From an uncultured Bacilli bacterium (GTDB taxonomy: Bacteria; Bacillota_I; Bacilli_A; RF39; UBA660), in the NCBI GenBank assembly GCA_947626095.1, contig CANQQV010000022.1, forward strand, positions 1-19,616: 19,616 bases of DNA, given 5' to 3'. This document shows positions 1-17,276 of the stretch, one piece after another (the stretch's first letter is position 1; each line of letters starts with the position of its first letter). Under the pieces are notes generated by a model that made no database searches, was not told where the DNA came from, and worked only from the letters and a program-made list of their open reading frames with translations. The translations under genes and the position numbers were made by a program.

Positions 1-10
1 CTTGGTAAAT

Positions 11-59
11 AATTTAACATAAAAAAATAAGATATAAATATTAAATTATTTACATCTTA
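11..59 (-). terminator. Intrinsic terminator fused to extended -10-like box (junction motif copy)
   Basis: Minus strand reads TAAGATGTAAATA-loop-TATTTATATCTTA, then T6, then TATGTTAAATT; lies downstream of the 88..813 gene. Confidence 0.6.
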
Positions 60-87
60 AAGTATACTTGTAATTTGCATCTAAAAC

Positions 88-813
88 TTAATTTATACGT
101 CCTAAAAATAAAAGTATATCAAAAAATATTACTAAAGCTAAACTGAAATAGAACATTATATATTTTAATTTACTATTTAAATTAAAATCTGTAAAAAATA
201 AATTTCTAATCTTATCAATTAATTTAAATCTAGTTATTAAAAATGTAAAAATTAACGTTCCCAAATAATTTAAAATAATATCATCAATATCAAAAGTACC
301 AGTATGTGTAAATGCTTGTATAACTTCAATACATATAATAATAGGTATTGTAATAAGTGATTGTTTAAAAATGTTTTTATATTTTAAATTTTTTAACATT
401 AGTAAAAATGAAAGAGGTATTATCATAACACTATTACCTATTATATTTTTTAAAATAGAATTGGTACTACCATATTTAAATTGATTAATTATTGTAGCAA
501 AAGGAGTAGACTGACCAGAATACCACCAATTATAAAATTTAATACTATCTCTACCTATATAAAAAGTAACGCTAATCAATAATAATAAATATAAGATTAT
601 ATATATAACGATGTTTATTTTATATTCTTTTTCTTTTTTTAATAAAAGACCAGATGTATAAACAAATGCACTAATTAGTAACATAAATAAAATACATTTA
701 AAATAAGAAACATGATAAATAAAACGATTTACACCAATAAAAAGTAAATAAATATAAATTAAAATATTAATTATTAAAATACTATATTTAATTAATGTTA
801 TTCTTTTATTCAT
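88..813 (-). CDS. VanZ-like family membrane protein
   Basis: 241 aa, multiple TM segments; NIIGNSVMIIP and IEVIQAFTHTGTFDIDDIILNYLG match the VanZ-like consensus; GGAG RBS. Confidence 0.8.
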   Translation of the reverse strand: MNKRITLIKYSILIINILIYIYLLFIGVNRFIYHVSYFKCILFMLLISAFVYTSGLLLKKEKEYKINIVIYIILYLLLLISVTFYIGRDSIKFYNWWYSGQSTPFATIINQFKYGSTNSILKNIIGNSVMIIPLSFLLMLKNLKYKNIFKQSLITIPIIICIEVIQAFTHTGTFDIDDIILNYLGTLIFTFLITRFKLIDKIRNLFFTDFNLNSKLKYIMFYFSLALVIFFDILLFLGRIN

Positions 814-864
814 AATTTCTCCACTCCTACAAAATACTATTTATCTTATTAACACAAATTCGAA

Positions 865-1164
865 TTATTTTTTATTTGGTAAATTCTTGCAAGTATCAAT
901 AACTATTTCTTTTAAAGATTCTTGATTATCTATATCATCTACTAAATACATAGGTTTAGCACCATCATAAGGAATAGATTCTTGCATATTGTATTTTTTA
1001 TTACTATCTACTATCTTAACAAGTAATCTATCATCATATATTCCACCGAATAATATTCCATTATAATAAAGTAAATATTCTCCCATCATTGGTTTACAAG
1101 TAATGTTATCTAATAAATTTAACTGTTCCAATACAAAATCTTTATATTCTTTTGTTGTAGCCAT
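865..1164 (-). CDS. TfoX N-terminal domain protein
   Basis: 99 aa; ITCKPMMGEYLLYYNGILFGGIYDDRLLVK and PYDGAKPM are typical of small TfoX_N proteins. Confidence 0.85.
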   Translation of the reverse strand: MATTKEYKDFVLEQLNLLDNITCKPMMGEYLLYYNGILFGGIYDDRLLVKIVDSNKKYNMQESIPYDGAKPMYLVDDIDNQESLKEIVIDTCKNLPNKK

Positions 1165-1211
1165 TATATCAACTCACTTTCAAATTATTATTTTTATTGA
1201 AATAATTTTCT

Positions 1212-1841
1212 TTATCTAATAAAATTTGTAAATGTTATTGTTTCTAGTTCTGGTGGATTGATACCTTTTTCTTTGCCTGCTTCTATGCATTTTAAATAAT
1301 AAGCCATATTTTTACCAAGGATTCTCATTATTTGCATACCTTCTTCATCTTTTCTTACTTCATCAGGTGTAGAACCATGTACCATATTCCAATATCTAGA
1401 AGAAATTACGGGCATTTGATTCATTGTATAATATTTATTTAATTGGTCAAAAGTAGCAGTTGTTCCTGCTCTTCTTGCTGAAACTATTGTTGCAGCTGGT
1501 TTTAATCTAAATATATCTTGATTTGAAAAAGTTGAATAAAAAAGGCGATCCATAAAAGAAGTTATGGCTCCGGATGCTGAGGCATAATGAACTGGTGTAC
1601 CAAAAACAAAACCATCAGCTTTTTTAGCTTTTTCCGCAAACTCATTTACAACATCATTAAATACACATTTGCCAAGTTCAGAACATTTATGGCAAGCAAT
1701 ACATCCAGATATCGGTTTAATACCTATCCAAAATATTTCAGTTTCTATTCCTTCATTATTTAATTCTTTAGCTACTTCACTAAGAGCAGTATAAACACAC
1801 CCTTCTTTATGTGGGCTTCCATTTACTAGTAATACTTTCAT
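1212..1841 (-). CDS. Flavodoxin family / NADPH-dependent FMN reductase (iron-sulfur flavoprotein-like)
   Basis: MKVLLVNGSPHKEG, CIACHKC...C cluster, GTPVHYA; start moved to ATG at 1841 because GGAG lies at 1851-1854. Confidence 0.9.
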   Translation of the reverse strand: MKVLLVNGSPHKEGCVYTALSEVAKELNNEGIETEIFWIGIKPISGCIACHKCSELGKCVFNDVVNEFAEKAKKADGFVFGTPVHYASASGAITSFMDRLFYSTFSNQDIFRLKPAATIVSARRAGTTATFDQLNKYYTMNQMPVISSRYWNMVHGSTPDEVRKDEEGMQIMRILGKNMAYYLKCIEAGKEKGINPPELETITFTNFIR

Positions 1842-1883
1842 AACAATTATCTCCATTCTTAAATTAATCTTTTCTTAATGAAA

Positions 1884-1930
1884 ATTATATCATGAAAAAT
1901 AGCAAACTTTGTATATATCGTTTGCTATTT
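1884..1930 (-). promoter_or_regulatory. Terminator hairpin fused to extended -10 promoter (junction motif copy)
   Basis: Minus strand AAATAGCAAAC-12nt-GTTTGCTATTT TT CATGATATAAT. Confidence 0.7.
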
Positions 1931-1937
1931 ATTTTAT

Positions 1938-2825
1938 CTAATTACTTACTTTGATATCGCCACAATCATTTTCGATTTTTAGAGTAATATCAGATTTATT
2001 ATAATTGTTATTTATTTTTACTTTACCTAAATCAGTTGCAGCATAAATAAATAATTCATTGGTCTTTCCTATTTCGATGTCACCATAGTCATCTTTAATA
2101 TAAGAATCTTTTTGTAAATTAATATTCTTAACTTTGATATTACCACAATCGTTTTCAAGATTAAGATAATTATTAACTGCATTAATTTTAATATCACCAT
2201 AATTATTTATGACTGTTACATCATTGACATTAGAAATAGAAACATCACCACAGTCTTCATTTATGTTTATTATATTAGATTCTCCTATTTCAACATCGCC
2301 ATAATTATTATCTACTTTGATATTATTACCACCAAGGATTTTTACATCACCGCAATCTTCTTCAATGTCAATATTAGCATTTAATAATTCATCGATATAA
2401 ATATCGCCATAATTATTCTTAATATTAATATCGCCATTAAAATCTTCTGGTAGATAAATTTCTACTTTAGATGATTTTTGATTAAAACAAAAACCAACAC
2501 ATTTTTCTTCACTAATTTTTATGTTTAAAGTATCATTATTAGTTGCAACATCTGTATGATCTTTTTCACCATATATTATGGCTTTAATATTATCGTCATT
2601 TGATTTTTTTATATTTATTTCACTAATCGAAGAATCAATTATAATTTTATTAAATTTTTCTTCATAAGTTTGATCAAGAATTAATTCATTACTACTTTGT
2701 AAACCAAATTTAAAACCACTAAATTTAAAATCGCTTTGTAAAAGTTTTACAAAAAATATAGAAAGACCTACCATTAAAATTGTTAAGATAACAATTAAAG
2801 TTATAATCAAATATTTATTTTTCAT
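1938..2825 (-). CDS. DUF4097-like beta-strand repeat protein with N-terminal membrane anchor
   Basis: N-terminal TM helix; about 9 repeats of IxIxNNYGDI / IxIxEDCGDV; overlaps the end of the upstream XRE gene, suggesting translational coupling. Confidence 0.8.
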   Translation of the reverse strand: MKNKYLIITLIVILTILMVGLSIFFVKLLQSDFKFSGFKFGLQSSNELILDQTYEEKFNKIIIDSSISEINIKKSNDDNIKAIIYGEKDHTDVATNNDTLNIKISEEKCVGFCFNQKSSKVEIYLPEDFNGDINIKNNYGDIYIDELLNANIDIEEDCGDVKILGGNNIKVDNNYGDVEIGESNIININEDCGDVSISNVNDVTVINNYGDIKINAVNNYLNLENDCGNIKVKNINLQKDSYIKDDYGDIEIGKTNELFIYAATDLGKVKINNNYNKSDITLKIENDCGDIKVSN

Positions 2826-3462
2826 CTTTAAGACTCCATAACATAAATATTAGTTTTAAGATTTCTTCAAATAAACCAAAGATAACCCATATTATCCAGG
2901 TTAAATTCCAAGCCATAGTTTTAAAACTTATAATAAGATAGATAATAGTTACAATGATTGCTACAACATTAGATATTTGATTTTTTATTTTATCTAGTTC
3001 AGTTTCTTCTTTCTTTTTTTCTTTTTTATACACAATACAAACATAAACAATCATACCTGTTGCTATTCCACAAATTAGTAAGAAGATTGCAGACGCTACT
3101 ATAGGATTCAAATTCATAACTGGGATAGAAATCATTACCCATATAACCGATAGAAAATATAAGATAACACTAACGGCTATTCCTTTAACTTTTTTATTTA
3201 ATTTGATTTTTTCTTCTTCAGGATTAATTAAATTTTCATTATTATTTGAATTTTCTTTTCTTTCTAATTTAATAAATAATTCATTTGGACTTATACCATA
3301 TAACTCACATAAAGGAACAATTTTATCAAAATCAGGCATACTTTGATCTGTCTCCCATTTTGAGATTGTTTGTCTAGTAACATTTAGTTTATCTGCTACT
3401 TCTTCTTGGGATAATTTTTTGTCTTTTCTTAATTCATATAATCTTTCACCTAGATTATTCAT
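2815..3462 (-). CDS. XRE-family HTH regulator with C-terminal membrane domain
   Basis: LGERLYELRKDKKLSQEEVADKLNVTRQTISKWETDQSMPD, then about 4 TM helices; start moved to ATG at 3462 (GAGGTGAGG RBS). Confidence 0.9.
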   Translation of the reverse strand: MNNLGERLYELRKDKKLSQEEVADKLNVTRQTISKWETDQSMPDFDKIVPLCELYGISPNELFIKLERKENSNNNENLINPEEEKIKLNKKVKGIAVSVILYFLSVIWVMISIPVMNLNPIVASAIFLLICGIATGMIVYVCIVYKKEKKKEETELDKIKNQISNVVAIIVTIIYLIISFKTMAWNLTWIIWVIFGLFEEILKLIFMLWSLKDEK

Positions 3463-3557
3463 TTTCCTCACCTCACAAGCAAAATTATACATTTCATTTT
3501 TGTTGCAATCTACCAATTTGAGTTGGAAATTTGTCAACTGATATTAACATTGTAATA

Positions 3558-3594
3558 AATATAACATGAAAAAAGCAAACTATTTTAGCTTGCT
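3558..3594 (-). promoter_or_regulatory. Terminator hairpin fused to extended -10-like box (junction motif copy)
   Basis: Minus strand AGCAAGCTA-AAA-TAGTTTGCT TTTTT CATGTTATATT. Confidence 0.65.
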
Positions 3595-3609
3595 AATATT
3601 GTTTATAAT

Positions 3610-4500
3610 TTATATTATATCAGAAATATTATTTATAAGTAGTTTACTGACTTCTTTATCACTCATTAAAGTTATAGAAAAAGTTTTATAACCTATCCTA
3701 TTAATACTAGCTCCACAATGGTATACTTTTTTGTTATCTATGATAAAATAACGATCGTGAAAAGTATCATCATATTTAATAACCAAATTATTATATTGCT
3801 TATTATATTTTAAAATATCCTGATCAGTAATTAAGTTATTTTTTTTAGTAATAATAGTTACATTAATACTTAATCTTTTTATAATATCTAACAATGTATT
3901 ATCAGCATAAGCATCAACTATTATTAAACTAGATTTAGCTTTTTTAAATATTTCTAAAATTTTAGAGTATGCATCCCATATTTGACCATTAAAATATATT
4001 TCTGTGTTTTTTCTATTTTTATCAAACTTCTTAAATGATTCTTGAAGTAACTTTATATTTTCAGTATTTTGCATAACTTGATTATTGATATATCTCTGTT
4101 CTAATAAATTAGTTGAAATATATTTACGCATCATAACAAAAGCATCCATTATTTTTATACTTACTTCAGTCGCAACTTTTGATTTTAAAATAGTTGCTAA
4201 CATAGCTACTCCTTGCTCTGTAAAAACACGAGGCATATATTTTCTATGAGCACCTCTACCTGATGTTTTAATTTTTAAGGTCGAAATTTTCGACCTTAAA
4301 AAAGTCCAATCATCATTTGATAGTACCCAAGAAAATCTTTCAGGAAATTTTTCAAAATTATTTTTAACGGCTTCATTTATTCTTTTTGTTTCCACCTGAT
4401 ATAGTTCAGCTAAATCAGAATCTAACATTACTTGTTTTCCTCTTACTTCATAAATCATATTCTCAACTACAATTTTACTTTCTGTAATTAATTCTTCCAT
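3610..4500 (-). CDS. ORF6N-domain DNA-binding protein with C-terminal PLD-like (HDR) domain
   Basis: N-terminus IYEVRGKQVMLDSDLAELYQVETKRINEAVKNN..KFPERF and PRVFTEQGVAMLATIL are ORF6N-type; C-terminus FHDRYFIIDNKKVYHCGASIN resembles a PLD-like motif; AGGAGG RBS. Confidence 0.88.
   Translation of the reverse strand: MEELITESKIVVENMIYEVRGKQVMLDSDLAELYQVETKRINEAVKNNFEKFPERFSWVLSNDDWTFLRSKISTLKIKTSGRGAHRKYMPRVFTEQGVAMLATILKSKVATEVSIKIMDAFVMMRKYISTNLLEQRYINNQVMQNTENIKLLQESFKKFDKNRKNTEIYFNGQIWDAYSKILEIFKKAKSSLIIVDAYADNTLLDIIKRLSINVTIITKKNNLITDQDILKYNKQYNNLVIKYDDTFHDRYFIIDNKKVYHCGASINRIGYKTFSITLMSDKEVSKLLINNISDII
4272..4302. repeat. 31-bp palindrome inside the ORF6N coding sequence
   Basis: TTTTTAAGGTCGAAA-T-TTTCGACCTTAAAAA: perfect 15-bp arms with a 1-nt centre; encodes FLRSKISTLK. 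Confidence 0.97.
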
Positions 4501-4520
4501 TTTAATACTCCTCCTACTAT

Positions 4521-4598
4521 TGTTTTATTTTTTGTGGTCGAAATTTTCGACCTCAAGTTTTCATATTCATTATTTGTTAATATCCAAGAAAACCTTTT
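4521..4598 (-). repeat. Silent variant copy of ORF6N segment 4264-4341, including palindrome core 4536-4552
   Basis: Ungapped alignment, 59/78 nt identical by hand count; translates KRFSWILTNNEYENLRSKISTTKNKT versus gene ERFSWVLSNDDWTFLRSKISTLKIKT. Confidence 0.92.
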
Positions 4599-4610
4599 TA
4601 ATCACTCTAT

Positions 4611-4654
4611 TGTTGTTTTAATTTTTTTGGTCGCAATTTTCGACCAAAAAAATT
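4611..4654 (-). repeat. Second variant copy of the ORF6N palindromic segment
   Basis: TGTTGTTTTAATTTTTTTGGTCGCAATTTTCGACCAAAAAAATT aligns ungapped to the gene from 4261 onward; translates FFWSKIATKKIKTT; palindrome 4620-4654 has one mismatch. Confidence 0.92.
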
Positions 4655-4692
4655 TACTTCCTTTAATTAATTCTTCCGTTTTACCATCCCCT
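4653..4692 (-). pseudogene. Degenerate copy of ORF6N RBS and first 9 codons (ATG changed to ACG)
   Basis: 4653-4679 matches 4474-4500 at 24/27 nt (TEELIKGSK versus MEELITESK); preceded by a purine-rich GGGGATGG. Confidence 0.85.
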
Positions 4693-4697
4693 AAAAT

Positions 4698-4727
4698 AAA
4701 AAAGACACACTCATAAATGAGTATGTC
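4698..4727 (-). terminator. Intrinsic terminator
   Basis: Minus strand GACATACTCA-TTTA-TGAGTGTGTC followed by TTTTTT. Confidence 0.85.
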
Positions 4728-4810
4728 CGCATCTTGTTAATTATTTCTTGCCTAAATAAATAACGCTATCGTTTAAATTGTCATATTAACACTTGGCAAG
4801 TAATTAATAT
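4698..4810 (-). ncRNA. Putative ~110-nt structured small RNA or leader upstream of the ORF6N locus
   Basis: Lies between TGATATAAT (4817-4825) and a terminator; outer stem TTAATTACTTGCC / GGCAAG(AAA)TAATTAA encloses two small hairpins. No family recognised. Confidence 0.45.
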
Positions 4811-4816
4811 GTTTAT

Positions 4817-4825
4817 ATTATATCA
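4817..4825 (-). promoter_or_regulatory. Extended -10 promoter
   Basis: TGATATAAT on the minus strand. Confidence 0.65.
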
Positions 4826-4855
4826 TTTTTGATACTATAAATAAAGTTTATTTTA

Positions 4856-5848
4856 TTAGAAGAAACCTCTTCCTTCAATATACCAATTATTATTTTTATC
4901 TTTAACTAATAACCATTTATAATGTTCTAATGAATTAGCACTAAAGCCAGAATCTTTAGGAATATAAAGTTCTTTATATGTTTCAAAATGAGTAGATAAA
5001 ATTAATACTTTATCGACATTATATTCTTTTAAATAACTTTGGTATTCATCTTCACTTAGTTCTACATATGTTAAATCAGTTGTTGTAGCTGGATATTCTT
5101 TTAATTTATTTAAGACAAGCAATACAGCTTCTACCATTTCTTCATTAGTATATCTATCATTATCAGAAATATTAATTTCAACATTAGATATATCACCATC
5201 TTTATGAATATGATTAGGAATAAGTCCTAGAAAAGAGGTTACATATAATACTAAACATAAAATAGAAATATATATTAAAGGCTTTTTTAATTTATCTGAT
5301 ACTGAACAAATTATATTACCAACAATAAAACCAATAAAGATAAAGACTAAATAAACACCAATTAAAGACAAAGTATCTATTTGTTTATAGAAAAATAAAC
5401 TAGTAATTAAAAATGATATTATAGAAATAATTGGATAGATAAATTTATTCTTATTAACAATAGTAAAGAAGGTAGAAAAGATTAAAGTAATTAAATAAAT
5501 AATCCATATTACACTACTATCTTCCTTGATAAATAATGGCAAAACAAATAAAAGTAAGATATTTAAAGCTAGTAAAGCTGGTACAATATATTCACTAAAA
5601 CGACTTTCCTTCTTTTCTTTTAAAGTAGTTACCTCTTTATTCATATCATCACCTAATAACTCATCGCAAGAAATATCCAAAGTCTTAGCAAGTTTTGGAA
5701 CTAATTTAGTATCAGGTAAACGATCATTATGTTCCCATGCTAAAATTGTTTCTTTACTAACTCCCATTATTTCACTAAGTTCTTTTTGACTTAATTTCAT
5801 CTTCTTACGATTTTCTGTAATTATTTTACCTACATCATTTTTATTCAT
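4856..5848 (-). CDS. XRE-family HTH regulator with multi-TM region and extracellular (DUF4829-like) C-terminal domain
   Basis: HTH LSQKELSEIMGVSKETILAWEHNDRLPD; about 5 TM helices; soluble C-terminal domain ending WYIEGRGFF; ATG at 5848 preferred given the GAGGAG RBS. The DUF assignment is tentative. Confidence 0.8.
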   Translation of the reverse strand: MNKNDVGKIITENRKKMKLSQKELSEIMGVSKETILAWEHNDRLPDTKLVPKLAKTLDISCDELLGDDMNKEVTTLKEKKESRFSEYIVPALLALNILLLFVLPLFIKEDSSVIWIIYLITLIFSTFFTIVNKNKFIYPIISIISFLITSLFFYKQIDTLSLIGVYLVFIFIGFIVGNIICSVSDKLKKPLIYISILCLVLYVTSFLGLIPNHIHKDGDISNVEINISDNDRYTNEEMVEAVLLVLNKLKEYPATTTDLTYVELSEDEYQSYLKEYNVDKVLILSTHFETYKELYIPKDSGFSANSLEHYKWLLVKDKNNNWYIEGRGFF

Positions 5849-5895
5849 ATTCAAATATCTCCTCTGTTAATTAGTTATTATACATCAAAATATAA

Positions 5896-6693
5896 CTAAT
5901 TCATCAAAAACATTGGCATAAATTCTTCAATCGTATAAGTTTTATTATCACCAGGTAGAGTTACATATGAATAAGCATTATTCTTTTCAGCTACTTGGAA
6001 TACATCATCTGTCCAACTAACTGTTCCCCTACCAGTTACTTTTGTATTCCATTCATCACTACCATAAGATTTAGTAGTCTTGGTAACATTAATATAACTA
6101 AAGCCATAATTAGCTCGATTATTATCTATTTTATAAATATAAGTTTCATAAACTATTTCACCTGCTCCACCATGGAAGACAGCCATATAATTATCAGGTA
6201 TTTCATTCTTATCAATTGCTTCTTTATGATAAACAATTTCATAATCATCTAAGTCCTTAATAGTAATTCTTTTATTCTTTAAGGCTTCCTCAACAGTTTC
6301 TTCATAACCATGAGTATATCTAACTAAAATATATTTACTTTTTATACAACCATAATAATAGACATAATCATCATCACGATAGAATTCTTCTAAAGCTTCA
6401 GCACAAACAAAATCCTTTATATCTTTAGTTGTATCAACTATTTCTTTTACTTCATATTCTGCTGGACAAGCATATTTAACAGTCTTAAATAAAGTTTTTT
6501 CTTCTTTATTATTACAATAATAATGATTTACTAATAATCCTTTATCAATATAAGATGTTTCACCACCATTATAATGTTCACGTATTTTTAGTAATGGACT
6601 ATTATTTAGTAATTTAGCTTGTAATGTATCCACTACAATAAGAGCAAATAAAACTACTATAACAATTAAAAATATCTTTAAAGCCTTTTTCAT
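5896..6693 (-). CDS. Hypothetical membrane-anchored or secreted protein
   Basis: 265 aa; N-terminal basic plus hydrophobic segment; AAAGGAGGTG RBS; own -10 box at 6717-6725. Confidence 0.8.
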   Translation of the reverse strand: MKKALKIFLIVIVVLFALIVVDTLQAKLLNNSPLLKIREHYNGGETSYIDKGLLVNHYYCNNKEEKTLFKTVKYACPAEYEVKEIVDTTKDIKDFVCAEALEEFYRDDDYVYYYGCIKSKYILVRYTHGYEETVEEALKNKRITIKDLDDYEIVYHKEAIDKNEIPDNYMAVFHGGAGEIVYETYIYKIDNNRANYGFSYINVTKTTKSYGSDEWNTKVTGRGTVSWTDDVFQVAEKNNAYSYVTLPGDNKTYTIEEFMPMFLMN

Positions 6694-6716
6694 ATAAACA
6701 CCTCCTTTATAGATTT

Positions 6717-6780
6717 ATTATATCATGAATTATTTTATCTATTAAAAAAAAACAAATCATTTAATTTTGATTTGTTTTTT
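6717..6780 (-). promoter_or_regulatory. Terminator (6744-6780) followed by CATGATATAAT extended -10
   Basis: AAAAAACAAATCA / TGATTTGTTTTTT hairpin after the MATE stop; TTCATGATATAAT further downstream on the minus strand. Confidence 0.7.
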
Positions 6781-6785
6781 AATTA

Positions 6786-8792
6786 TTACTTATCAAGTTC
6801 TTTAATATATTTACAAATTATTTCGGCTGTTTTATCAACACCTAATTTATCAACATTTAAAGCTAAATCATAGTTATCATAAGAATTCCAATTTCGATTA
6901 GTAAAATAATTATAATGTTTAGCGCGTTGTTTATTTATTTTGTTAATTTCTTTTTCTGCTGTTTCTTTAGATAAACCATAATATTTTACTACTCTATTTA
7001 TTTTAGATGGCATATCAGAATATAAGAATATACTTATGACATTTTTATTATTTCTTAATATATAATCAGCACATCTACCTACAATAACACATGATTCTTT
7101 TTTAGCAAGAGCTGTAATTACTTTAGCTTCATTAGTAAATAAATTATCATCATTAGTATAAAACATACTTGATTTAATATTTTGTTCTTCATTATCTTGA
7201 ATATATTTTTTAGTATAGCCATATTTTTCAGCTGTTAAGTTAATTATTTCTTTATCATAAAAATTAATACCTAAAGATGAAGCAACTAACTGACCAACAA
7301 AATGACCACCAGAACCATATTCACGAGAGATAGTTAAAACAACTTTGTTCTTTAAGATAGTTGGATCAATAGCTATCTTTTCATCTTGAAGATTTAGTTC
7401 TTCTTTAGAACTTTCTAATTTTTTAAATTCATTTAAAAGAAGTAGTATTCCTAAAATAAAAGCTAAAATATCGGCAATGATAGCACTCCATAACATCGTT
7501 ACAATACTATGACTTAAAGTCGCAATAATTATAATAGCTGGAACAAAGAAGATAACATCTCTAGCTAAAGCTAAAATAGTTGATTTAACACTAGAACCCA
7601 TTGATTGTAATAAAATAGAAATTGATTTAATTAAACAAGTAAAGATAATTCCACCTAAGAAGATTCTTAAACAATATTTAGCATATTCTAAGTATTCAAT
7701 TCCATTACCTTTACCAAAAATATTAATGATAAAAGTTGGAAAAAATTCAAAGATAACAAATGCTAAACAACCAATAATTAAATTAATTACTAAGATATAT
7801 TTAATTGTTTCTTTAACCCTTTTAGTCTTATCAGCACCCATATTATAACCAATAATTGGCATACCACCTAAAGAAACACCAATCACGATGGAAACAACAA
7901 TACCGAAGACTTTCATACAGATACCAATAACAGCTAATGGTGTAACAACCCCATATGTTAAACCAGTCGATGCCATTGTCATATAACCATATTTACCTAC
8001 AACATTGTTAGCAACTGCGATAATAATAACAATTGCTAATTGAGTTATTAAAGAAGCTAAACCTAAAGAAAGAGTTTTAGTCCAAATGCCTTTATCTAGT
8101 TTTAACGATTCTTTATTAATTTTAAATGATTTCGCTTTGGCTAAATAAACTATACTAACAATAAAAGTTAATACTTGACCTATTACAGTAGCTATAGCAG
8201 CACCTTTAACACTTAGCTTAAAAACAAAGATAAAGATAGGATCTAAAATAATATTAGAAATCGCCCCAATCAAAGTAGCAAACATCGCAAAATTAGGACT
8301 ACCATCATTTCTAATTGATGCATTAAGACCTTGACCAATAATATAAAATGGTAAACCACAACAAATTATTTTTAAATAATCTTTAGCATATTGGTAACAC
8401 TCTACTTCATTGGGATTAGCCCCAAATATTCTTAAAATTTGTTTACTAAAAATAAAACCAATAATAGTTAAAATAATAGCTATAAATACTAAAAGAATTA
8501 AACCATTACCTATTGATTTATTTGCTTTTTCTTTATCTTTAGCCCCTAACGATAAACTAAATAAAGCCGCCATCCCATCACCTACTAATAAAGCAAAAGC
8601 TAAAGAGATGACTGTAAAAGGATAAACGATATTGGTAGCAGCATTACCAAATGCCCCAGCACTACTCCAACCAATAAATATTTGATCAACAATATTGTAT
8701 AAAGCAGCTACTATCATACTAATAACACAGGGAATGGCAAACTTTTTTATTAACTTAGGAATGCTATCTTTTCCTAAATCTAATTCTTTCAT
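6786..8792 (-). CDS. MATE-family efflux transporter (MepA-like) fused to a cytidylate-kinase-like domain
   Basis: KFAIPCVISMIVAALYNIVDQIFIG and NIILDPIFIF are MATE motifs; C-terminal TISREYGSGG...FYDKEI...IVGRCADYIL is cytidylate-kinase-like; start ATG 8792 with AAGGAGG. Confidence 0.9.
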   Translation of the reverse strand: MKELDLGKDSIPKLIKKFAIPCVISMIVAALYNIVDQIFIGWSSAGAFGNAATNIVYPFTVISLAFALLVGDGMAALFSLSLGAKDKEKANKSIGNGLILLVFIAIILTIIGFIFSKQILRIFGANPNEVECYQYAKDYLKIICCGLPFYIIGQGLNASIRNDGSPNFAMFATLIGAISNIILDPIFIFVFKLSVKGAAIATVIGQVLTFIVSIVYLAKAKSFKINKESLKLDKGIWTKTLSLGLASLITQLAIVIIIAVANNVVGKYGYMTMASTGLTYGVVTPLAVIGICMKVFGIVVSIVIGVSLGGMPIIGYNMGADKTKRVKETIKYILVINLIIGCLAFVIFEFFPTFIINIFGKGNGIEYLEYAKYCLRIFLGGIIFTCLIKSISILLQSMGSSVKSTILALARDVIFFVPAIIIIATLSHSIVTMLWSAIIADILAFILGILLLLNEFKKLESSKEELNLQDEKIAIDPTILKNKVVLTISREYGSGGHFVGQLVASSLGINFYDKEIINLTAEKYGYTKKYIQDNEEQNIKSSMFYTNDDNLFTNEAKVITALAKKESCVIVGRCADYILRNNKNVISIFLYSDMPSKINRVVKYYGLSKETAEKEINKINKQRAKHYNYFTNRNWNSYDNYDLALNVDKLGVDKTAEIICKYIKELDK

Positions 8793-8818
8793 AAAATTCC
8801 TCCTTATATTTTCGAGCA

Positions 8819-8924
8819 TAAAAAATACGTAAGCCATTGTACAATTGGACTTACGCATTTGAGCTACTCATTGAATATAAATGAACTTAATAAATTTTTT
8901 CTCGACCTGAAAAATCATATCACA
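8819..8924 (-). promoter_or_regulatory. Promoter plus 5' leader containing an intrinsic terminator (candidate attenuator of the MATE gene)
   Basis: TGTGATATGAT at 8914-8924; hairpin ATGCGTAAGTC...GGCTTACGTAT (8825-8858) plus a T-run, placed before the RBS. Confidence 0.55.
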
Positions 8925-8958
8925 TTTTTAAATTTTATGTAAGTTTTTCTTAAATTAT

Positions 8959-9333
8959 TTATTTTTTTTTGACGTTATTTTTTTTCTTTTTAGGAAATGC
9001 TAATCTCATAAAAGGGATAATGGCGATAGTAAAGATAGCAACGACAATAAATAGTGAATATGTTTTATTAACAATCGCATAGTAAACAGTATATACTAAA
9101 AAACCAATCGCATAGATAAAGAAAGTAATACGAAATAGATATTTAAAGATATTAGATAACTTTTCTTTATTTAAAAGATAAAATAGTCTTTCAAAAAAGA
9201 TAGCAAAAGAACATATTAGAAAAGGACTAATAATTATTCTAGCAAATAATTTATTTTGAAAGAAAGCCCATAATAAAAAGATAAAAGCAAAGACAGCAGT
9301 TATCATTTGACGAATATAATAAATATTTTTCAT
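8959..9333 (-). CDS. Hypothetical 4-TM membrane protein
   Basis: 124 aa, hydrophobic; GGGAGG RBS; own -10 box. Confidence 0.8.
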   Translation of the reverse strand: MKNIYYIRQMITAVFAFIFLLWAFFQNKLFARIIISPFLICSFAIFFERLFYLLNKEKLSNIFKYLFRITFFIYAIGFLVYTVYYAIVNKTYSLFIVVAIFTIAIIPFMRLAFPKKKKNNVKKK

Positions 9334-9357
9334 AACGTCCTCCCTAAATTACTCAAT

Positions 9358-9395
9358 ATTATAACATAAAAAAAGTAAAGCTAATACACTTTACT
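9358..9395 (-). promoter_or_regulatory. Terminator hairpin fused to extended -10 promoter (junction motif copy)
   Basis: Minus strand AGTAAAG-8nt-CTTTACT TTTTT TATGTTATAAT; the left arm overlaps the stop codon of 9391..10104. Confidence 0.65.
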
Positions 9396-10104
9396 CTTTA
9401 CAATAATTCATTAATTCAGTATCAGTTTTCTTACTATTCTTTTCTACTACCCAATATTCATTATCTTGATCAAAATTACAACGATAGACATCATAGAATA
9501 AAGTATCATAATAAAGTACATTACCAATATATTTAGTATTTGTTCTAAACATCGGCGCTTCTTCGTTATATTTAACGTTTATATAATCTGTAACTAGTAA
9601 GATACTCATTGATAAAGTAAAGATAAGAATCATAAGTAATAATCTTATATGCCATTTTATAAAATTTAAAATTCTTGTAATACCTATCATAAAGATAATA
9701 ATACCAAAGACTGAATAAATAGAACCCCAACTACTCTCACTTGGAAATATCGTAATAGCTGAAATAGCAATAAATAAACCAAAGATAATGATAATTATTG
9801 AAATAACTTGATTATATTTAGTTATTCTTTTTGTTGAATAATCAATAGTATTAACAATGTTTTCTTCAAACTTATCTTGGTATTCATCTTTATTTAATTT
9901 TTCACCACTTAATAATTCATTAATCGTAATATCTAATTTAGCACATAGTGGTTTAAATAAAGATAAGTCTGGCATGTTTTTGCCATTCTCCCAATTACTT
10001 ACTGAACGATCAGTTACACCTAGACTTTCAGCTAATTCACTTTGAGTTAATTTTTTCTTCTTACGACATTCCGCAATGAATTTACCTATTTTTTCTTGAT
10101 TCAT
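9391..10104 (-). CDS. XRE-family HTH regulator with C-terminal membrane/extracellular domain
   Basis: MNQEKIGKFIAECRKKKKLTQSELAESLGVTDRSVSNWENGKNMPD; 3 TM helices; AAAGGAG RBS. Confidence 0.9.
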   Translation of the reverse strand: MNQEKIGKFIAECRKKKKLTQSELAESLGVTDRSVSNWENGKNMPDLSLFKPLCAKLDITINELLSGEKLNKDEYQDKFEENIVNTIDYSTKRITKYNQVISIIIIIFGLFIAISAITIFPSESSWGSIYSVFGIIIFMIGITRILNFIKWHIRLLLMILIFTLSMSILLVTDYINVKYNEEAPMFRTNTKYIGNVLYYDTLFYDVYRCNFDQDNEYWVVEKNSKKTDTELMNYCKE

Positions 10105-10189
10105 ATTTTTTCTCCTTTCACATTAAATATAAAATGTAAAAGTCTTTTTGAACACGAAGTAAAACTTGAGTTTCATATTAATTGTAACA

Positions 10190-11038
10190 CTATTTTAATT
10201 TTTTATTAGCTCTAACTATCATATATATCGACATAATTGTATTTATTAAGCAAACTACAAATCCCATAATACTAGTCATTATCATTTTAAATTCACTATC
10301 ATTTGTTCCAAACTCACTAACCATAGCGACTTCTAAAGAAATCATTGAAATCATTGCCACAGTTAAGTTAATACATTTACTGGATGCTAAAAGCGGACTA
10401 TGATCTTTACGATATTTAATAACATTTATAATTGCACTTATGATTAAATAAAAATCATACATAGCTACAATATAAATAATAAAGCCAGCATAAGTTATTC
10501 TTTGATCTTGTTTAATAATTAAAATAATCATACCAGTTAAAACTAAATTAAGAAATAAAAGAATAATACCTGTTAATCTTAACTTTTTATATTCTTCTTT
10601 TAATTTAATTCCAACTTCATTTTTAATATCTTTAACTATCGATAACTTCATTACGCATAATATTAAATAATAAATGGCAAAAGTGATAAACCACCAAGAC
10701 ATATAATATATACCAGTTCCTAATTTAAAAATACCATAAATAAAATTTATAATTAAGGAAATAGCGAGAAATATTTTAGTTACTTTTAATTCGTACCTTT
10801 TATATAAATGATATATTTTAGATTCTTTTACGATATTGTTACTAAATTTGCATACTTTACAAAACCAAATAATGAAAATAATTAAAGCATAGGTAGATAA
10901 AAGATAACTTATATAAGCAATAGGTGTATCTTCTAAATGACAACTAAAGACATAGATAAGTAAAATGAAAGCTAAATTAAAAAGAATAAATCCAATTATC
11001 TTATTTGGGAGAAATATATTCTTTAATATTTTTTTCAT
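10190..11038 (-). CDS. Hypothetical multi-pass membrane protein
   Basis: 282 aa with about 8 hydrophobic segments; GAGGTG RBS; -10 box at 11060-11068. Confidence 0.8.
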   Translation of the reverse strand: MKKILKNIFLPNKIIGFILFNLAFILLIYVFSCHLEDTPIAYISYLLSTYALIIFIIWFCKVCKFSNNIVKESKIYHLYKRYELKVTKIFLAISLIINFIYGIFKLGTGIYYMSWWFITFAIYYLILCVMKLSIVKDIKNEVGIKLKEEYKKLRLTGIILLFLNLVLTGMIILIIKQDQRITYAGFIIYIVAMYDFYLIISAIINVIKYRKDHSPLLASSKCINLTVAMISMISLEVAMVSEFGTNDSEFKMIMTSIMGFVVCLINTIMSIYMIVRANKKLK

Positions 11039-11059
11039 AGTACACCTCTAACTTATATA

Positions 11060-11097
11060 ATTATATCATTAAAAGAAAAAAGGAAGAATATTCTTCC
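11060..11097 (-). promoter_or_regulatory. Terminator palindrome followed by extended -10
   Basis: GGAAGAATATTCTTCC then a T-run then AATGATATAAT on the minus strand. Confidence 0.6.
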
Positions 11098-11107
11098 AAG
11101 TAAATAA

Positions 11108-11503
11108 CTAATCTTTGTTACTTTTTATATATGAATATATTGGGTAGTTGAATACACAAATTAGTAAACCAACAATCCCTGTTACAATACCAATTAGTAA
11201 ATCAGTTTTAGATGGATCTCCAACCATAACTTTACTCATACCAAAGCCCATTACTAAAGCCCCAACTATACCAATAACCCAAGTAATAACTATTCCCCAA
11301 TTTATTGGAGCATGTTCTTTTTTAGGATGGCTTTTACGATACACAGGAATAATGCAAAGTAGAATAATAAAACCTAAAATTGCTACAACAACACCTACTT
11401 TAAATAAGTCCCATTCAGGTATTAAACACATACACATACCTATGGCAAATACTAAACCACCAATAGTTCCTAAAATAATTTCTAATAAAGTTTCTTTTTT
11501 CAT
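11108..11503 (-). CDS. Hypothetical 4-TM membrane protein
   Basis: 131 aa with two internally similar halves (GLVFAIGMC / ALVMGFGMS); GGAGG RBS. Confidence 0.85.
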   Translation of the reverse strand: MKKETLLEIILGTIGGLVFAIGMCMCLIPEWDLFKVGVVVAILGFIILLCIIPVYRKSHPKKEHAPINWGIVITWVIGIVGALVMGFGMSKVMVGDPSKTDLLIGIVTGIVGLLICVFNYPIYSYIKSNKD

Positions 11504-11523
11504 AATCTTTCCTCCATATGACT

Positions 11524-11790
11524 TTATTTACTTAATTTTTCTTTAATTTCAGCTTGTATTTCTTCAGTTGTTTTAGAATATTTATGTTGCTCTTGTTGTC
11601 TTTTTTCTTGTTCTTTTTTTAATCTTGCTTTAGCTTCTTCTACTGTTTCACTATCTTGTTTTAAGAAAGTATCGACAAATTTATCTTCAACCTTCTTATA
11701 TCCACCTACAACTGTGTTTTCAACTTTCTTGTAACCACCAACAACAGCATTTTCAATTTTCTTATTAGCATCTACTATTTTTGACATCAT
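11524..11790 (-). CDS. Small hypothetical protein with 11-aa tandem repeats (VVGGYKKVEN)
   Basis: Start moved to ATG 11790 or 11787 (GGAAGAGAG RBS); sequence KIENAVVGGYKKVENTVVGGYKKVED; divergent from TetR. Confidence 0.8.
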   Translation of the reverse strand: MMSKIVDANKKIENAVVGGYKKVENTVVGGYKKVEDKFVDTFLKQDSETVEEAKARLKKEQEKRQQEQHKYSKTTEEIQAEIKEKLSK

Positions 11791-11810
11791 TATCACTCTC
11801 TTCCAATAAT

Positions 11811-11891
11811 TAGACACTTGTCTTTTTATTACATTTTTAATATAATCTAAATATCGAAGGAATACAATCAACAATTTATAGACATTTGTCC
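11811..11891. promoter_or_regulatory. Pair of candidate TetR operators in the divergent promoter region
   Basis: TAGACACTTGTCT (11811-11823) and TAGACATTTGTCC (11879-11891), each an inverted repeat GACA-nn-TGTC near one start codon. Confidence 0.7.
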
Positions 11892-11910
11892 AATTAAAGG
11901 AAGTGAAGAT

Positions 11911-12447
11911 ATGAATACTCCAAATAACAAAAGAAGAAAAGAAACTAAAGATAAAATAAATAAAGTATTTATAACTTTATTACAAACAAAAGAAATATCT
12001 GAAATATCTGTTACTGATATATGTAAACTTGCTAAAATAAATCGTTCTACTTTTTATATTAATTATCTTGATATTTATGATTTAGCAGACAAAATCGGAC
12101 AAGATTTAGAGCAAGATGTTTTTTCTTTATATCAAGAAGAAAGAGATACTAATCATAATTCCAACAACTTTTTAAAACTATTTAAACATATAAAAGATAA
12201 CCAACTATTTTATAAAACTTATTTTAAATTAAAGATGGATCAAAACTTTATCACTCAAGAATACGATTATCATTTATCAAAAGAATTATATGATGATAAA
12301 TACATAGATTATCACATGGAATTTTTTAAAGCTGGTCTTAATGCCATTATCAAAAAATGGCTTGAAAATGGTTGCAAAGAATCTCCAGAAGAAATAGAAA
12401 GTATCTTAAAAAGCGAATATGCAAATAAAAATAATACCAAGAACTAA
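11911..12447 (+). CDS. TetR/AcrR-family transcriptional regulator
   Basis: ISVTDICKLAKINRSTFYINYLDIYDL HTH; C-terminal IKKWLENGCKESPEEI. Confidence 0.92.
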   Translation: MNTPNNKRRKETKDKINKVFITLLQTKEISEISVTDICKLAKINRSTFYINYLDIYDLADKIGQDLEQDVFSLYQEERDTNHNSNNFLKLFKHIKDNQLFYKTYFKLKMDQNFITQEYDYHLSKELYDDKYIDYHMEFFKAGLNAIIKKWLENGCKESPEEIESILKSEYANKNNTKN

Positions 12448-12463
12448 ACTTGATATTATTTTT
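12427..12463. terminator. Bidirectional terminator between convergent TetR and XRE genes
   Basis: AAAAATAATAcCAAG-loop-CTTGaTATTATTTTT. Confidence 0.6.
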
Positions 12464-12465
12464 TG

Positions 12466-12972
12466 TTACATTAATATAAAAGCAATAGTATTAAAAATAA
12501 CAGCAATAAAAAATAATACTCCAGTAATTAAATCTGTTTTATCTTTGCCTATTTTATAACGACTTAAAAAAGTAACACAGTTATAAGCACATAGTAAACT
12601 AACAATAGAAGACATATGTTTATCTTTAAAAAAGGAAATTAACATTAAAATAACGGAAAATAAAGACATACCGATAATACCATATTTCATCGATTTTAAA
12701 TTTACTAATTCTGTCAATTTAATGATATTCTCTTCACTCTTTTTTTCAATATCTTTTTCTTCAATCTTTTCACCAGCTAGTATTTCATTTATACTTACAA
12801 CTAATATTTCACTAAGAGGTTTTAATAAGGACATATCCATTAAACATAAACCTCTTTCCCATTTACTGACTGCATTTTTCGTAATACCTAACTTTTCAGC
12901 TAATTCCTCTTGTGTTAAATTTTTTTCTTTTCTAGCATTAGCAATGAATTTGCCAATTTTTTCTTGATTCAT
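12466..12972 (-). CDS. XRE-family HTH regulator with C-terminal 3-TM domain
   Basis: MNQEKIGKFIANARKEKNLTQEELAEKLGITKNAVSKWERG; start ATG 12972 with AAAGGAG. Confidence 0.9.
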   Translation of the reverse strand: MNQEKIGKFIANARKEKNLTQEELAEKLGITKNAVSKWERGLCLMDMSLLKPLSEILVVSINEILAGEKIEEKDIEKKSEENIIKLTELVNLKSMKYGIIGMSLFSVILMLISFFKDKHMSSIVSLLCAYNCVTFLSRYKIGKDKTDLITGVLFFIAVIFNTIAFILM

Positions 12973-13028
12973 ATATTTTTCTCCTTTCAAGAAGAAATAT
13001 AATATTTTTTAATTACTTTTTAAACATA

Positions 13029-13532
13029 CTAGAGGTTTACTTTATCTACATTTATTATATTTACTTGATTACCATGATCTTTAATAATATTAATTAGATC
13101 TCGAGCTTTTAACCAAATAGTTGCAGTATTATCATTTGGATGAACACCGATTATCCCATTATCTTCTAAGAACGTTTCATCCAAATAGAAAATTACTTTT
13201 AAATCTTTATCATTTAATAAACCTAATGGTGTTACAGAACCTGGTTTTAAATTTAATATATTCATTAAATCATTTTCACTGGCAAAACTTAAACGACGAG
13301 TATGAAATTCATCACTAAAAGATTTTAAGTCTAACTTTTTATCTCCTTTAAGTGTAATTAAATAATAATTTCTTTTTTTATCATCTCTAACGAAAAGATT
13401 TTTACCATCAGCTTCTTTATATGGTAAATCAACATCATTTAATTCTTGCATATTATAAACTGCTTTATGTTCTGTAATTTCATACCATATATTTTTACTT
13501 TTTATAAAGTCATATATTTCTTCTTTATTCAT
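13029..13532 (-). CDS. YbaK/ProX (PrdX-like) aminoacyl-tRNA editing protein
   Basis: KNLFVRDDKK, LSFAS, PGSVTPLGLLND and VHPNDNTAT motifs. Confidence 0.9.
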   Translation of the reverse strand: MNKEEIYDFIKSKNIWYEITEHKAVYNMQELNDVDLPYKEADGKNLFVRDDKKRNYYLITLKGDKKLDLKSFSDEFHTRRLSFASENDLMNILNLKPGSVTPLGLLNDKDLKVIFYLDETFLEDNGIIGVHPNDNTATIWLKARDLINIIKDHGNQVNIINVDKVNL

Positions 13533-13569
13533 AGTACATGCCTTCTAATTATAATTTTTCTTACTAATT

Positions 13570-13610
13570 ATTATACCATGAAAAAAGCAAACTTTTTTAT
13601 ATAGTCTGCT
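13570..13610 (-). promoter_or_regulatory. Terminator hairpin fused to extended -10 promoter (junction motif copy)
   Basis: Minus strand AGCAGACT-9nt-AGTTTGCT TTTTT CATGGTATAAT; the left arm lies inside the 3' end of 13597..13914. Confidence 0.7.
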
Positions 13611-13914
13611 CCTCTATCGGTTCGTGATATATTATTTCTTTATTATTCTTTTTAGCATATTCTATTTCCTTTTTAGTACTACTACCAATATAGCCATCAA
13701 TATTAACAACATATATGGCATCACTAATATCAATCTTCTTACGATGAATTCTATCTAAAGTACTAGCATCAAGCCCTTCATATTTTTTACCATCAACATT
13801 ATAAACACATTGAATAACCGCATAACCTTTTTCTAATTCTAATTCTTCAGCTATTTTCATCATTTCTTTAGCATATCTCATACTACCACAAATAGTTATT
13901 ACTTTAATATCCAT
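13597..13914 (-). CDS. Nucleoside 2-deoxyribosyltransferase-like fold small protein
   Basis: ITICGSMRY...HRKKIDISDAIYVVNIDGYIGSSTKKEIEYA. Confidence 0.7.
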   Translation of the reverse strand: MDIKVITICGSMRYAKEMMKIAEELELEKGYAVIQCVYNVDGKKYEGLDASTLDRIHRKKIDISDAIYVVNIDGYIGSSTKKEIEYAKKNNKEIIYHEPIEEQTI

Positions 13915-13916
13915 AA

Positions 13917-14174
13917 TTATTTATCCTTCTTTTTCTCTTTATCATCTTCAATACTAACACTATATAAAGAGATTCCTTTTTTCGTAAATAGATTGATTCC
14001 ATAAAAAGCCGTTTGTATAAAAGCAATTAGTGTCCATAATAAGAAAAATATAAAAATCATATTATTTCTAAAACCTATCAGTAACCCAATTCCTATAACA
14101 CTAAATACTAAGCTACCTATAAATCCTATTGTTGATTGAAACTTAGATGGTCTTACTCTCATTCTTCTTCCCAT
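13917..14174 (-). CDS. Small 2-TM hypothetical membrane protein
   Basis: Start moved to ATG 14174 (AGAGGAG RBS); two hydrophobic helices. Confidence 0.75.
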   Translation of the reverse strand: MGRRMRVRPSKFQSTIGFIGSLVFSVIGIGLLIGFRNNMIFIFFLLWTLIAFIQTAFYGINLFTKKGISLYSVSIEDDKEKKKDK

Positions 14175-14193
14175 ATTTTTTTCTCCTCTATAC

Positions 14194-14736: not shown

Positions 14737-14739
14737 CTT

Positions 14740-14937
14740 TTATTTTCTTTTACCCTTCTTCTTACCACTCTTTTTCTTAGATGGACATAAACAAGAAAAT
14801 ATAATACAAAATAAACATGGTACTACCGCATAACCAGCATTTACTTGTCCTTTATTAATAAGAACATAACCAGCTCCTATAAAAGTCAAAATTGCAAAAA
14901 CTAAAGTTAAAAATTTAAATAATCTCTCTTTACTCAT
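14740..14937 (-). CDS. Small 2-TM hypothetical membrane protein
   Basis: MSKERLFK...GAGYVLINKGQVNAGYAVVP; start moved to ATG 14937 (GGTGAG RBS, downstream of the -10 at 14963). Confidence 0.75.
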   Translation of the reverse strand: MSKERLFKFLTLVFAILTFIGAGYVLINKGQVNAGYAVVPCLFCIIFSCLCPSKKKSGKKKGKRK

Positions 14938-14962
14938 TTTACTCACCATTTCTTTCAAGAAT

Positions 14963-15000
14963 ATTATACCACGAAAAAAGCAATCTTTATATGATTGCTT
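14963..15000 (-). promoter_or_regulatory. Terminator hairpin fused to extended -10 promoter (junction motif copy)
   Basis: Minus strand AAGCAATC-7nt-GATTGCTT TTTT CGTGGTATAAT. Confidence 0.7.
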
Positions 15001-15001
15001 A

Positions 15002-17271: not shown

Positions 17272-17276
17272 ATATG

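Follow-up and report, generated by a model that had tools for sequence, protein, structure and literature searches.

Introduction

Cis-acting sites can lie inside the gene whose product binds them, as parS does within parB/spo0J and the lambda ori iterons within gene O. By analogy, the closest functional parallel in print to the locus described here is BstA with its aba element. BstA is described as an abortive-infection defence protein with a KilA-N-like N-terminal DNA-binding domain whose own locus holds aba, an element overlapping the coding sequence; each BstA homologue has its cognate element, and copy number matters in trans (PMC8585504). Here we analyze an ORF6N-PLD-like gene on a 19,616-nucleotide (nt) stretch of DNA from an uncultured Bacilli bacterium of the RF39/UBA660 lineage (assembly GCA_947626095.1, contig CANQQV010000022.1, positions 1 to 19,616 of the forward strand), hereafter the window. 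This gene contains a long perfect palindrome, and the DNA just upstream of its start codon holds two further palindrome-bearing pieces of the same gene.

Partial gene copies and palindromes are also familiar from other settings: silent-cassette conversion operates at Neisseria pilE/pilS and Borrelia vlsE, and quasipalindrome template-switch mutation, together with hairpin-loop inversions, is a mutational mechanism and not a system. An initial annotation of the window had offered three options for the upstream pieces, i.e., (a) donor cassettes that diversify a DNA-contacting segment by gene conversion or recombination, (b) operators derived from the gene's own sequence, or (c) scars of repeated allele replacement at the palindrome, and it knew of no described system with this layout. 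A literature search agrees on the last point, in that neither the palindrome in ORF6N genes nor orphan arrays were found described (supplements lay outside its scope). We favour, with evenly divided confidence, a reading in which the pieces are relics of upstream gene copies that may have been kept as docking or operator sites, and not silent coding cassettes.

Results

Pieces of the ORF6N gene fill the DNA upstream of its start codon

The ORF6N-PLD-like gene, the only ORF6N gene in the genome, occupies 3610–4500 on the minus strand and encodes 296 amino acids (aa), with an ORF6N domain, a long helix and a C-terminal PLD-like domain. As the initial annotation had proposed, the apparently intergenic DNA before it is a mosaic of the gene's own pieces: on the minus strand, the 190 nt 5′ of the ATG are assembled from a start fragment, copy 1 and copy 2, in that order, followed by the real ribosome-binding site (RBS) and ATG. 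The start fragment (4650–4683, minus strand), an RBS-like stretch plus codons 1–9, shows 88% identity over 34 nt to 4471–4504. Copy 1 (about 4605–4665, minus strand) matches nt 199–247 of the coding sequence (CDS; FFWSKIATKKIKTT) by repeat search and shuffle test, and copy 2 (about 4512–4590, minus strand) matches CDS nt 161–237, i.e., about codons 54–79 (KRFSWILTNNEYENLRSKISTTKNKT), by repeats, shuffles, tblastn and nhmmer. Local alignment scores against the CDS were evaluated with 500 dinucleotide-preserving shuffles per piece, and all three lay far above the shuffles: 22 for the start fragment (shuffle mean 11.1, maximum 16), 31 for copy 1 (mean 12.9, maximum 20) and 41 for copy 2 (mean 13.9, maximum 21). 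Copy 2 was recovered by tblastn (E 8.5e-6) and in an nhmmer gene-profile search (E 7e-8 at profile positions 161–229), in which copy 1 reached E 0.18 only.

Both copies carry a palindrome that corresponds to one in the gene. The coding palindrome (4272–4302; core 4279–4295) is perfect, with a 15+1+15 layout, and spans about codons 67–76 (FLRSKISTLK). That of copy 1 (4620–4654; core 4629–4645) has 17-nt arms at 94% pairing, one unpaired core position (left half GTCGAAA, right half GTCGCAA) and outer arms (T-run/A-run) that are those of another allele class, while that of copy 2 (4532–4556; core 4536–4552) has 12-nt arms at 92% and is centred 44 nt before the ATG. The three sites belong to a 62-nt repeat family (4257–4318 in the CDS, 4514–4575 and 4607–4668) with spacings of 257 and 93 nt, in agreement with the earlier claim that a palindrome-bearing segment is stored twice, 93 nt apart. 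Helical phasing is not obvious from these spacings. A further repeat links 4567–4597 to 4310–4340 (84% over 31 nt), and the stretch between copy 1 and copy 2 (4593–4610, minus strand) is a possible remnant of a gene-end/RBS/start junction, judged by eye from its likeness to the real junction before the ATG.

Read on the minus strand from 4679 to 4503, the pieces share one frame, TEELIKGSKFFWSKIATKKIKTTIE*LKRFSWILTNNEYENLRSKISTTKNKTIVGGVL, with a single TGA, and this translation agrees exactly with the earlier reading. Two points of that reading had to be amended: the shared frame is not that of the real ATG, as 179 nt separate the two starts and stops abound in the ATG frame, and the ACG that replaces ATG in the start fragment is present but lies at 4679–4677.

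Across the genome (1,615,532 bases in 34 contigs), the 17-nt core pattern has three matches, all at this locus, and a reversed control pattern has 0. A genome-wide scan returned 88 long palindromes, four of them with the GT..AA layout, i.e., the three window sites and an unrelated one on contig C17. A dispersed repeat or miniature inverted-repeat transposable element was ruled out, the palindrome type being confined to this locus within the genome.

The palindrome is conserved at the DNA level across the family

The family set of 99 ORF6N domain copies was drawn from the window and 79 public loci. Of these copies, 94 have 12 or more of 14 positions paired at the same codons. When synonymous codons were redrawn, mean best pairing was 9.2 versus 13.1 observed across the 99 copies, and any of 100 redraws matched the observed pairing in only 15 copies. 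Twelve homologues in related genomes have a palindrome of about 25 nt at these codons, and in other families of the same class 9 of 10 ORF6N genes contain the palindrome. A phage collection yielded three unannotated records with the domain; all four of their domain copies held the palindrome, a result uninformative on function.

Changes between genes were paired across the arms (TCG/CGA, TCC/GGA, TTT/AAA, TCA/TGA and GCAA/TTGC), and the K/R codon (AAG/AGG) covaried with the silent third base of the opposite Thr codon (ACT/ACC). In addition, a shifted-frame reading of the same palindrome was found in alleles L020/L034, L050, L072, L075 and L083. Between L014 and L020 the T run gained one nt and the A run lost one, by which FWSQFATKK becomes FLVEIFDQK between identical flanks; these length changes form a compensated frameshift confined to the site. 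Because some alleles read the palindrome in another frame, the peptide it encodes appears dispensable and its DNA symmetry does not. We conclude that the palindrome is very probably a selected DNA-level element.

Two other palindrome arrangements were seen in the family. In L095 (1085–1156), L100 (about 2731), L129, L131 and L133, two tandem palindromes lie within the coding sequence (e.g., ..LRSKISSLE..NLRSKISTTK..), i.e., an in-frame site duplication. In several loci, two recurrent palindromes of a non-ORF6N type follow the ORF6N genes at conserved distances (L036 at 3956, L038 at 1856, L053 at 3793, and L048, L051, L069 and L070 about 190–230 nt past the last gene).

One helix residue tracks the palindrome type

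Residue 43 of the protein (the E in TKRINEAV), which lies in a predicted recognition helix, was compared across the 99 copies with the two bases just after the constant GT of each half-site. Glutamate was paired with CG (32 copies), glutamine with CA or CC (29), leucine with TT (23), lysine with TC (10) and arginine with GC (2). Overall, residue 43 predicts the variable dinucleotide in 96 of the 99 copies, counted as copies and not as independent events; the correspondence fails in a truncated copy, L031 and the decayed L078. Mapped onto a 72-row tree of the C-terminal 170 residues, the site type switches at least 27 times, and tandem neighbours as well as paralogues with near-identical C-termini differ in type. 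These switches indicate that helix and site travel as one module on changing backgrounds. In the window, the CDS site and both upstream relics are of the E type, the same as the gene's own helix.

A close pair of loci shows the association outside the gene. L078 (type Q, helix ..INQAV) and L087 (type L, helix ..INLAV), which are sisters on the C-terminal tree, differ at two orthologous orphan positions, GTCACA in the former versus GTTTCA in the latter, with otherwise similar flanks. In both (gene at 2501), the CDS palindrome is lost (9–10 of 14 pairs) and upstream orphans are kept, i.e., 7 of 8 orphans lie upstream in L078 and 5 of 5 in L087. We consider it rather probable that the palindrome is the protein's own putative binding site.

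Orphan palindromes recur beside related genes

The initial annotation had suggested surveying homologue flanks for copies of each gene's own palindrome, and such copies do recur: 17–19 of the 79 related loci hold family-type palindromes outside any long gene match, 2 of the 19 in short truncated genes. There are up to eight orphans per locus (8 in L078; 6 in L031 and L080; 5 in L074, L076 and L087), and L112, from another genus, has four upstream. Orphans lie upstream of the gene in some loci and right after the stop codon in others, with coding homology around the centre that mostly extends 15–50 nt on each side. A search of gene-masked flanks with a whole-gene DNA profile gave 55 matches at E ≤ 1, of which all but 6 span the palindrome (profile about 198–230); in the well-conserved C-terminal half, the profile matched only tails of frameshifted genes (L052, L079 and L082). 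Random decay would not yield such a pattern, in which fragments of other gene parts are nearly missing.

The nearest relative (G010, the same as L006/L030; 89% protein identity) has upstream pieces of the same sort, one start fragment and two fragments with a palindrome. In the start fragment the ATG is intact and opens an 11-codon mini-ORF. The fragment orthologous to copy 2 has a flipped centre base, an in-frame TAA and a deleted left flank; the second is of a different type and has no counterpart in the window, and copy 1 of the window is not found in G010.

Other relatives contain intact head-to-tail full-length paralogues, two or three per locus (L032/L033, L041, L045, L035, L043, L088 and L094). 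Tandem paralogues lie about 20 nt apart and can be of mixed types, as in L041 (E-L-K), L032 (E-K-Q) and L045 (E-E-L), and truncated ORF6N copies occur in further relatives. Within the fetched flanks, all 13 loci with at least two orphans have a single full-length gene, and where several such genes occur there is at most one orphan. Arrays also expand through duplication of site-bearing units (L078 versus L087, L031 versus L034). Between close strains, flanks are near-identical over long stretches; the cores differ by substitutions paired between the arms, and their centres are flipped (A↔T, AAA↔TTT). Overall, we hold with high confidence that the upstream pieces are gene-derived relics of former copies.

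In six loci (L102–L107), a short ORF6N-only gene (query residues about 12–121) with a different site type stands directly upstream of the full-length gene, which may represent a two-gene arrangement.

The ORF6N-PLD-like protein

The Pfam ORF6N model (PF10543) matches residues 15–104 at 104.4 bits (cut-off 27.8; E 4e-30), and the N-terminal part matches PHROG "anti-repressor" families. The PADLOC model PDC-S05 (PDLC04869), a candidate single-gene defence family, covers residues 8–292 of 296 (E 2e-90), and the one NCBIfam match, VPA1262_N, was partial and, at 31 bits, below the cut-off of 80. In E. coli B, one PDC-S05 representative is reported to have lowered the plating of T7, T5 and T4 (bioRxiv 10.1101/2024.09.26.614923). 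The window protein is a full-length match to the PDC-S05 hidden Markov model, whereas that phage-tested representative is a different protein, described there with a Virulence_RhuM domain. Neither the palindrome nor the orphan arrays are mentioned in the papers found.

An AlphaFold (AF2) model from 30 homologues has a predicted local distance difference test (pLDDT) score of 76.5, with values of 81–91 across most of residues 181–296 and a dip to 74 at 271–280. It places helices at 27–34, 38–47 and 62–72, a low-confidence loop at 73–85, a long helix at 108–161 and an alpha/beta domain at the C-terminus; on this model, helices 27–34 and 38–47 can be read as a helix-turn-helix (HTH). For the whole architecture, Foldseek returned TrmBL2 (E 4e-7). 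For the C-terminal domain it returned Zucchini, NucT and Nuc at E 4e-5 to 1e-3 (4ggk, 3.7e-5; 6ehi, 4.7e-5; 1byr, 1.4e-3), over about 126–145 aligned columns and with root-mean-square deviations of 3.7–4.4. PLD enzymes carry the catalytic motif HxK(x)4D. Here H248-D249-R250...D255 and G263/S265 (motif H-D-R...D...G-x-S) are invariant in 30 of 30 sequences, with Arg in the place of the Lys expected from the PLD motif.

A symmetric homodimer is predicted through residues 94–145 with a score of 0.51 (best of three controls, 0.00), the runs having contact agreement of at least 64% and pLDDT of at least 74. The prediction was run on our own alignment. As a measure of the mark used, 20 of 30 solved homodimers reach it, and so does 1 of 23 single chains.

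Leader, promoter and neighbouring genes

An extended −10 promoter-like motif at 4817–4825 (minus strand) probably drives both the leader and the ORF6N gene. This motif, TGATATAAT, has 7 matches in the window versus 1.5 expected, all on the minus strand (1163–1171, 1884–1892, 3614–3622, 4817–4825, 6717–6725, 11060–11068 and 18439–18447) and most just upstream of a gene start by open reading frame (ORF) coordinates; from the sequence, it looks like the organism's standard extended −10 promoter. Between 4700 and 4500 on the minus strand, no site of the −35/−10 type was found. The motif is followed by a terminator-like hairpin with a T run (about 4693–4728, minus strand; 11 pairs, a loop of 4 and a T-rich tail), which lies directly upstream of the mosaic and is conserved in G010, and then by the palindromes centred at 4637 and 4544 and the ATG at 4500. 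The leader of about 120 nt at 4693–4812 (minus strand) folds into a long-range stem plus the terminator hairpin (minimum free energy −26.8 kcal/mol, z −3.6); it is near-identical in G010, has no Rfam match, and could be an attenuator- or riboswitch-like leader or a small RNA.

A Pfam scan of the 27 window ORFs found no phage-structural, integrase or recombinase domains. Five genes combine an XRE-type HTH_3 start with a longer C-terminal part (2815–3537, 4856–5854, 9391–10104, 12466–12990 and 15838–16545), and two of them flank the ORF6N gene. The C-terminal parts of 2815–3537 and 4856–5854 are hydrophobic and membrane-like in translation, with weak membrane-protein matches. The ORF at 6786–8858 (690 aa) joins a MatE/MurJ-like transporter to a cytidylate-kinase-like domain.

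Discussion

We propose that one or two ORF6N copies formerly lay upstream of the present gene, either as a partial tandem duplicate or as tandem paralogues since lost, and that these would have been whittled down to a start-codon stub and a short palindrome-bearing piece. The palindrome would be the putative docking site of a symmetric ORF6N-PLD dimer, read by helix 38–47, and the relics would have been retained in the leader as extra docking or operator sites. Such sites may restrain gene expression or protein activity, much as an autoregulatory operator or the BstA/aba element would. That the relics were kept as sites we infer from their E type, which is that of the gene, and from their place between the promoter/terminator and the RBS. 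It seems possible, if a shade short of an even call, that the two copies in the window act in this way. Among the three options of the initial annotation, gene-derived operators are thus the best supported, by a DNA-level element, a matching type and a leader position, although binding of the protein, the geometry of a dimer on the palindrome and any regulatory effect are things we infer. The option of scars is right as to origin, given the tandem and truncated copies in relatives and the orphans beside single genes, but the pieces do not appear to be scars of allele replacement at the palindrome.

Several observations weigh against this proposal. Helix and site are only about 75–90 nt apart in the gene, a distance short enough for joint inheritance, so that the 96 of 99 agreeing copies are not 96 independent events. 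Orphans entered the list after selection by eye for palindromes like those of the family, which makes statements about a conserved layout partly circular. Of 62 orphans, only 32 share their type with a gene of the same locus, and the orphan nearest the start codon (within about 135 nt) is of another type in 8 of 9 loci, the window being the exception; such nearest orphans fit the relic of a different neighbour better than a general rule of autoregulation. No single operator position emerges, with arrays that in several loci precede the promoter or follow the stop codon. By comparison with usual operators, a perfect symmetry of 25–35 nt exceeds what is needed, and hairpin-templated correction could maintain it without selection. 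Finally, one of the three homodimer runs scored 0.01.

The foremost alternative, unlikely in our view, is that the upstream copies are inert by-products: tandem copies would collapse through deletions that end at fragile, hairpin-prone palindromes, and template switching would keep the arms. Hairpin-templated template switching would give paired arm changes and centre flips. The differences between close strains, i.e., near-identical flanks with paired core substitutions, centre flips and whole units gained or lost, are those expected from such conversion, and the tandem and truncated copies in relatives would supply the starting material. Moreover, half of the orphans are non-cognate, and some are decaying, as seen in the final unit of L034 and in imperfect orphans of L037 and L059. 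What this explanation accounts for less well is persistence: up to eight orphans per locus retain a 25–35-nt site though about 800 nt of each gene are gone, and they hold fixed positions (GT .. AA-W-TT .. AC) without coding constraint, with the GT anchor in both arms of 60 of 62 orphans in the list filtered by eye. In L078 and L087, two orphan positions follow the helix type, and the upstream sites are kept where the CDS site is not.

An RNA-level role is improbable. Under this explanation the copies would be hairpins in the 5′ leader of the mRNA that affect stability, processing or attenuation, possibly pairing in trans with the coding palindrome. Both indeed fall within what is probably the transcribed leader, with the promoter-like motif and the terminator-like hairpin (4703–4728) upstream of them; the leader 4495–4700 folds with both palindromes as hairpins (z = −3.2), and several relatives have an orphan between promoter and RBS. 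However, the symmetry reaches the centre and leaves a "loop" of 1 nt, which is needless for an RNA hairpin and typical of a dimer's duplex site, and the association with an HTH residue suggests duplex DNA. In addition, many arrays lie upstream of promoters, where transcription is doubtful, and no Rfam family matches: at E ≤ 5, a search of 3400–5000 gave chance-level miRNA/snoRNA matches on the palindromes only. A single RNA run (n = 1; share of words 0.07) was set aside.

The donor-cassette option would make the palindrome a programmed break or recombination point at which silent fragments are copied into the gene, varying its middle segment, and we regard it as very improbable. Its appeal lies in the region around the palindrome being the hypervariable part of the protein. 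The paralogues L031 and L034, from one metagenome-assembled genome, are near-identical save for patches at codons 34–43, around the palindrome and in the coil; orphan cores are replaced wholesale between close strains; and the pieces share one frame in both the window and G010. NLRSKISTTK alleles, similar to copy 2, exist as CDS in 8 metagenome loci, with an E-type helix in the 5 that reach the helix, and they do not show that any transfer to or from a cassette took place; to this extent, the initial view of copy 2 as a once-functional allele may be correct. Nevertheless, cassette homology is short (mostly 15–50 nt on each side), and the cassettes lack the helix (codon 43) that matches the site type, so that a swap would mismatch helix and site. 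The orthologous cassette of G010 has an in-frame TAA and a deleted left flank, the window mosaic is interrupted by a TGA and does not share the frame of the gene, and the palindrome peptide tolerates a complete frame change. Between L074 and L076, the CDS site differs only at the centre base while four orphans changed, and the window ORFs scanned include no recombinase or reverse transcriptase.

The initial annotation had also called for metagenomic reads in which the CDS carries an upstream variant. Logan contigs from four runs of four studies were aligned to 3600–4900, a comparison blind to rare variants; the array was kept, and no CDS/cassette swap appeared among the differences listed; a back-translated search of metagenome contigs for the EYENLRSKISTT allele gave no match. 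One contig from another study spans 3600–4900 with 36 differences and an intact array, and deletions of 8 nt at 4517 and of 1 nt at 4620, neither within a core, are common to two runs. In three of the four runs, contigs end or start at palindromes (about 4276–4302, 4536 and 4623–4667). Odd joints (4224/4653 on opposite strands; 4655→4408 backwards; 4561→4622 with 14 other letters) were seen in one contig each at 85% likeness; these may derive from ORF6N genes of other organisms and were used for no conclusion. A diversity-generating retroelement, shufflon or invertible switch was rejected, as no reverse transcriptase or site-specific recombinase was found among window ORFs of at least 90 aa.

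Returning to the docking-site proposal, a bolder and rather doubtful extension is that each ORF6N-PLD defence gene carries its own "address" within its CDS and that the orphans together serve as a functional store of docking or immunity sites resembling aba. On the chromosome, cognate sites would then restrain the resident nuclease-like dimer; non-cognate ones, left by paralogues since lost, would neutralise or recruit sister or incoming ORF6N proteins, and collapsed gene arrays would constitute a DNA-encoded specificity register. If the palindrome is indeed the protein's own site, the family would offer a readable protein-DNA code, from one helix residue to two bases, written inside the gene, and its specificity types would form a natural series. 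In the orphan arrays one would see defence-gene arrays decaying into regulatory or self-immunity DNA, which bears on how abortive or nuclease-type defence proteins stay harmless to their host. For annotation, "intergenic" DNA beside ORF6N genes can be gene-derived, and the palindromes break short-read assemblies.

Compared with known systems, the locus shares with quasipalindrome template switching the paired arm changes and centre flips between close strains; that mechanism explains the kept symmetry, but not the same-codon position in about 100 genes. With pilE/pilS and vlsE it shares promoterless partial copies of a variable segment stored beside the expressed gene, whereas the ORF6N pieces are 35–100 nt long, stop-bearing and out of frame, with no CDS exchange among the listed contig differences. 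In parS, the lambda iterons and autoregulatory operators, as proposed here, a site symmetric for a dimer lies in or beside the binder's gene, or between promoter and start codon. Unlike those sites, the ORF6N site sits at fixed codons of the DNA-binding domain family-wide and shapes the peptide, its type changes with the helix residue, and spare copies come from collapsed genes.

The likeness to BstA/aba is that the ORF6N site also lies inside the gene and that its type tracks residue 43 in 96 of 99 copies, linkage being a possible cause. The two differ in form, aba being 63 bp at the start codon with terminal direct repeats and the ORF6N site a mid-gene palindrome, and in setting, BstA being prophage-borne and the ORF6N window without phage genes among the 27 ORFs scanned. 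The ORF6N protein, moreover, has a PLD-like C-terminal domain, and its extra site copies are gene-derived relics in arrays. We class the finding with cis sites in or near the binder's gene, or with the self-immunity DNA of a defence gene.

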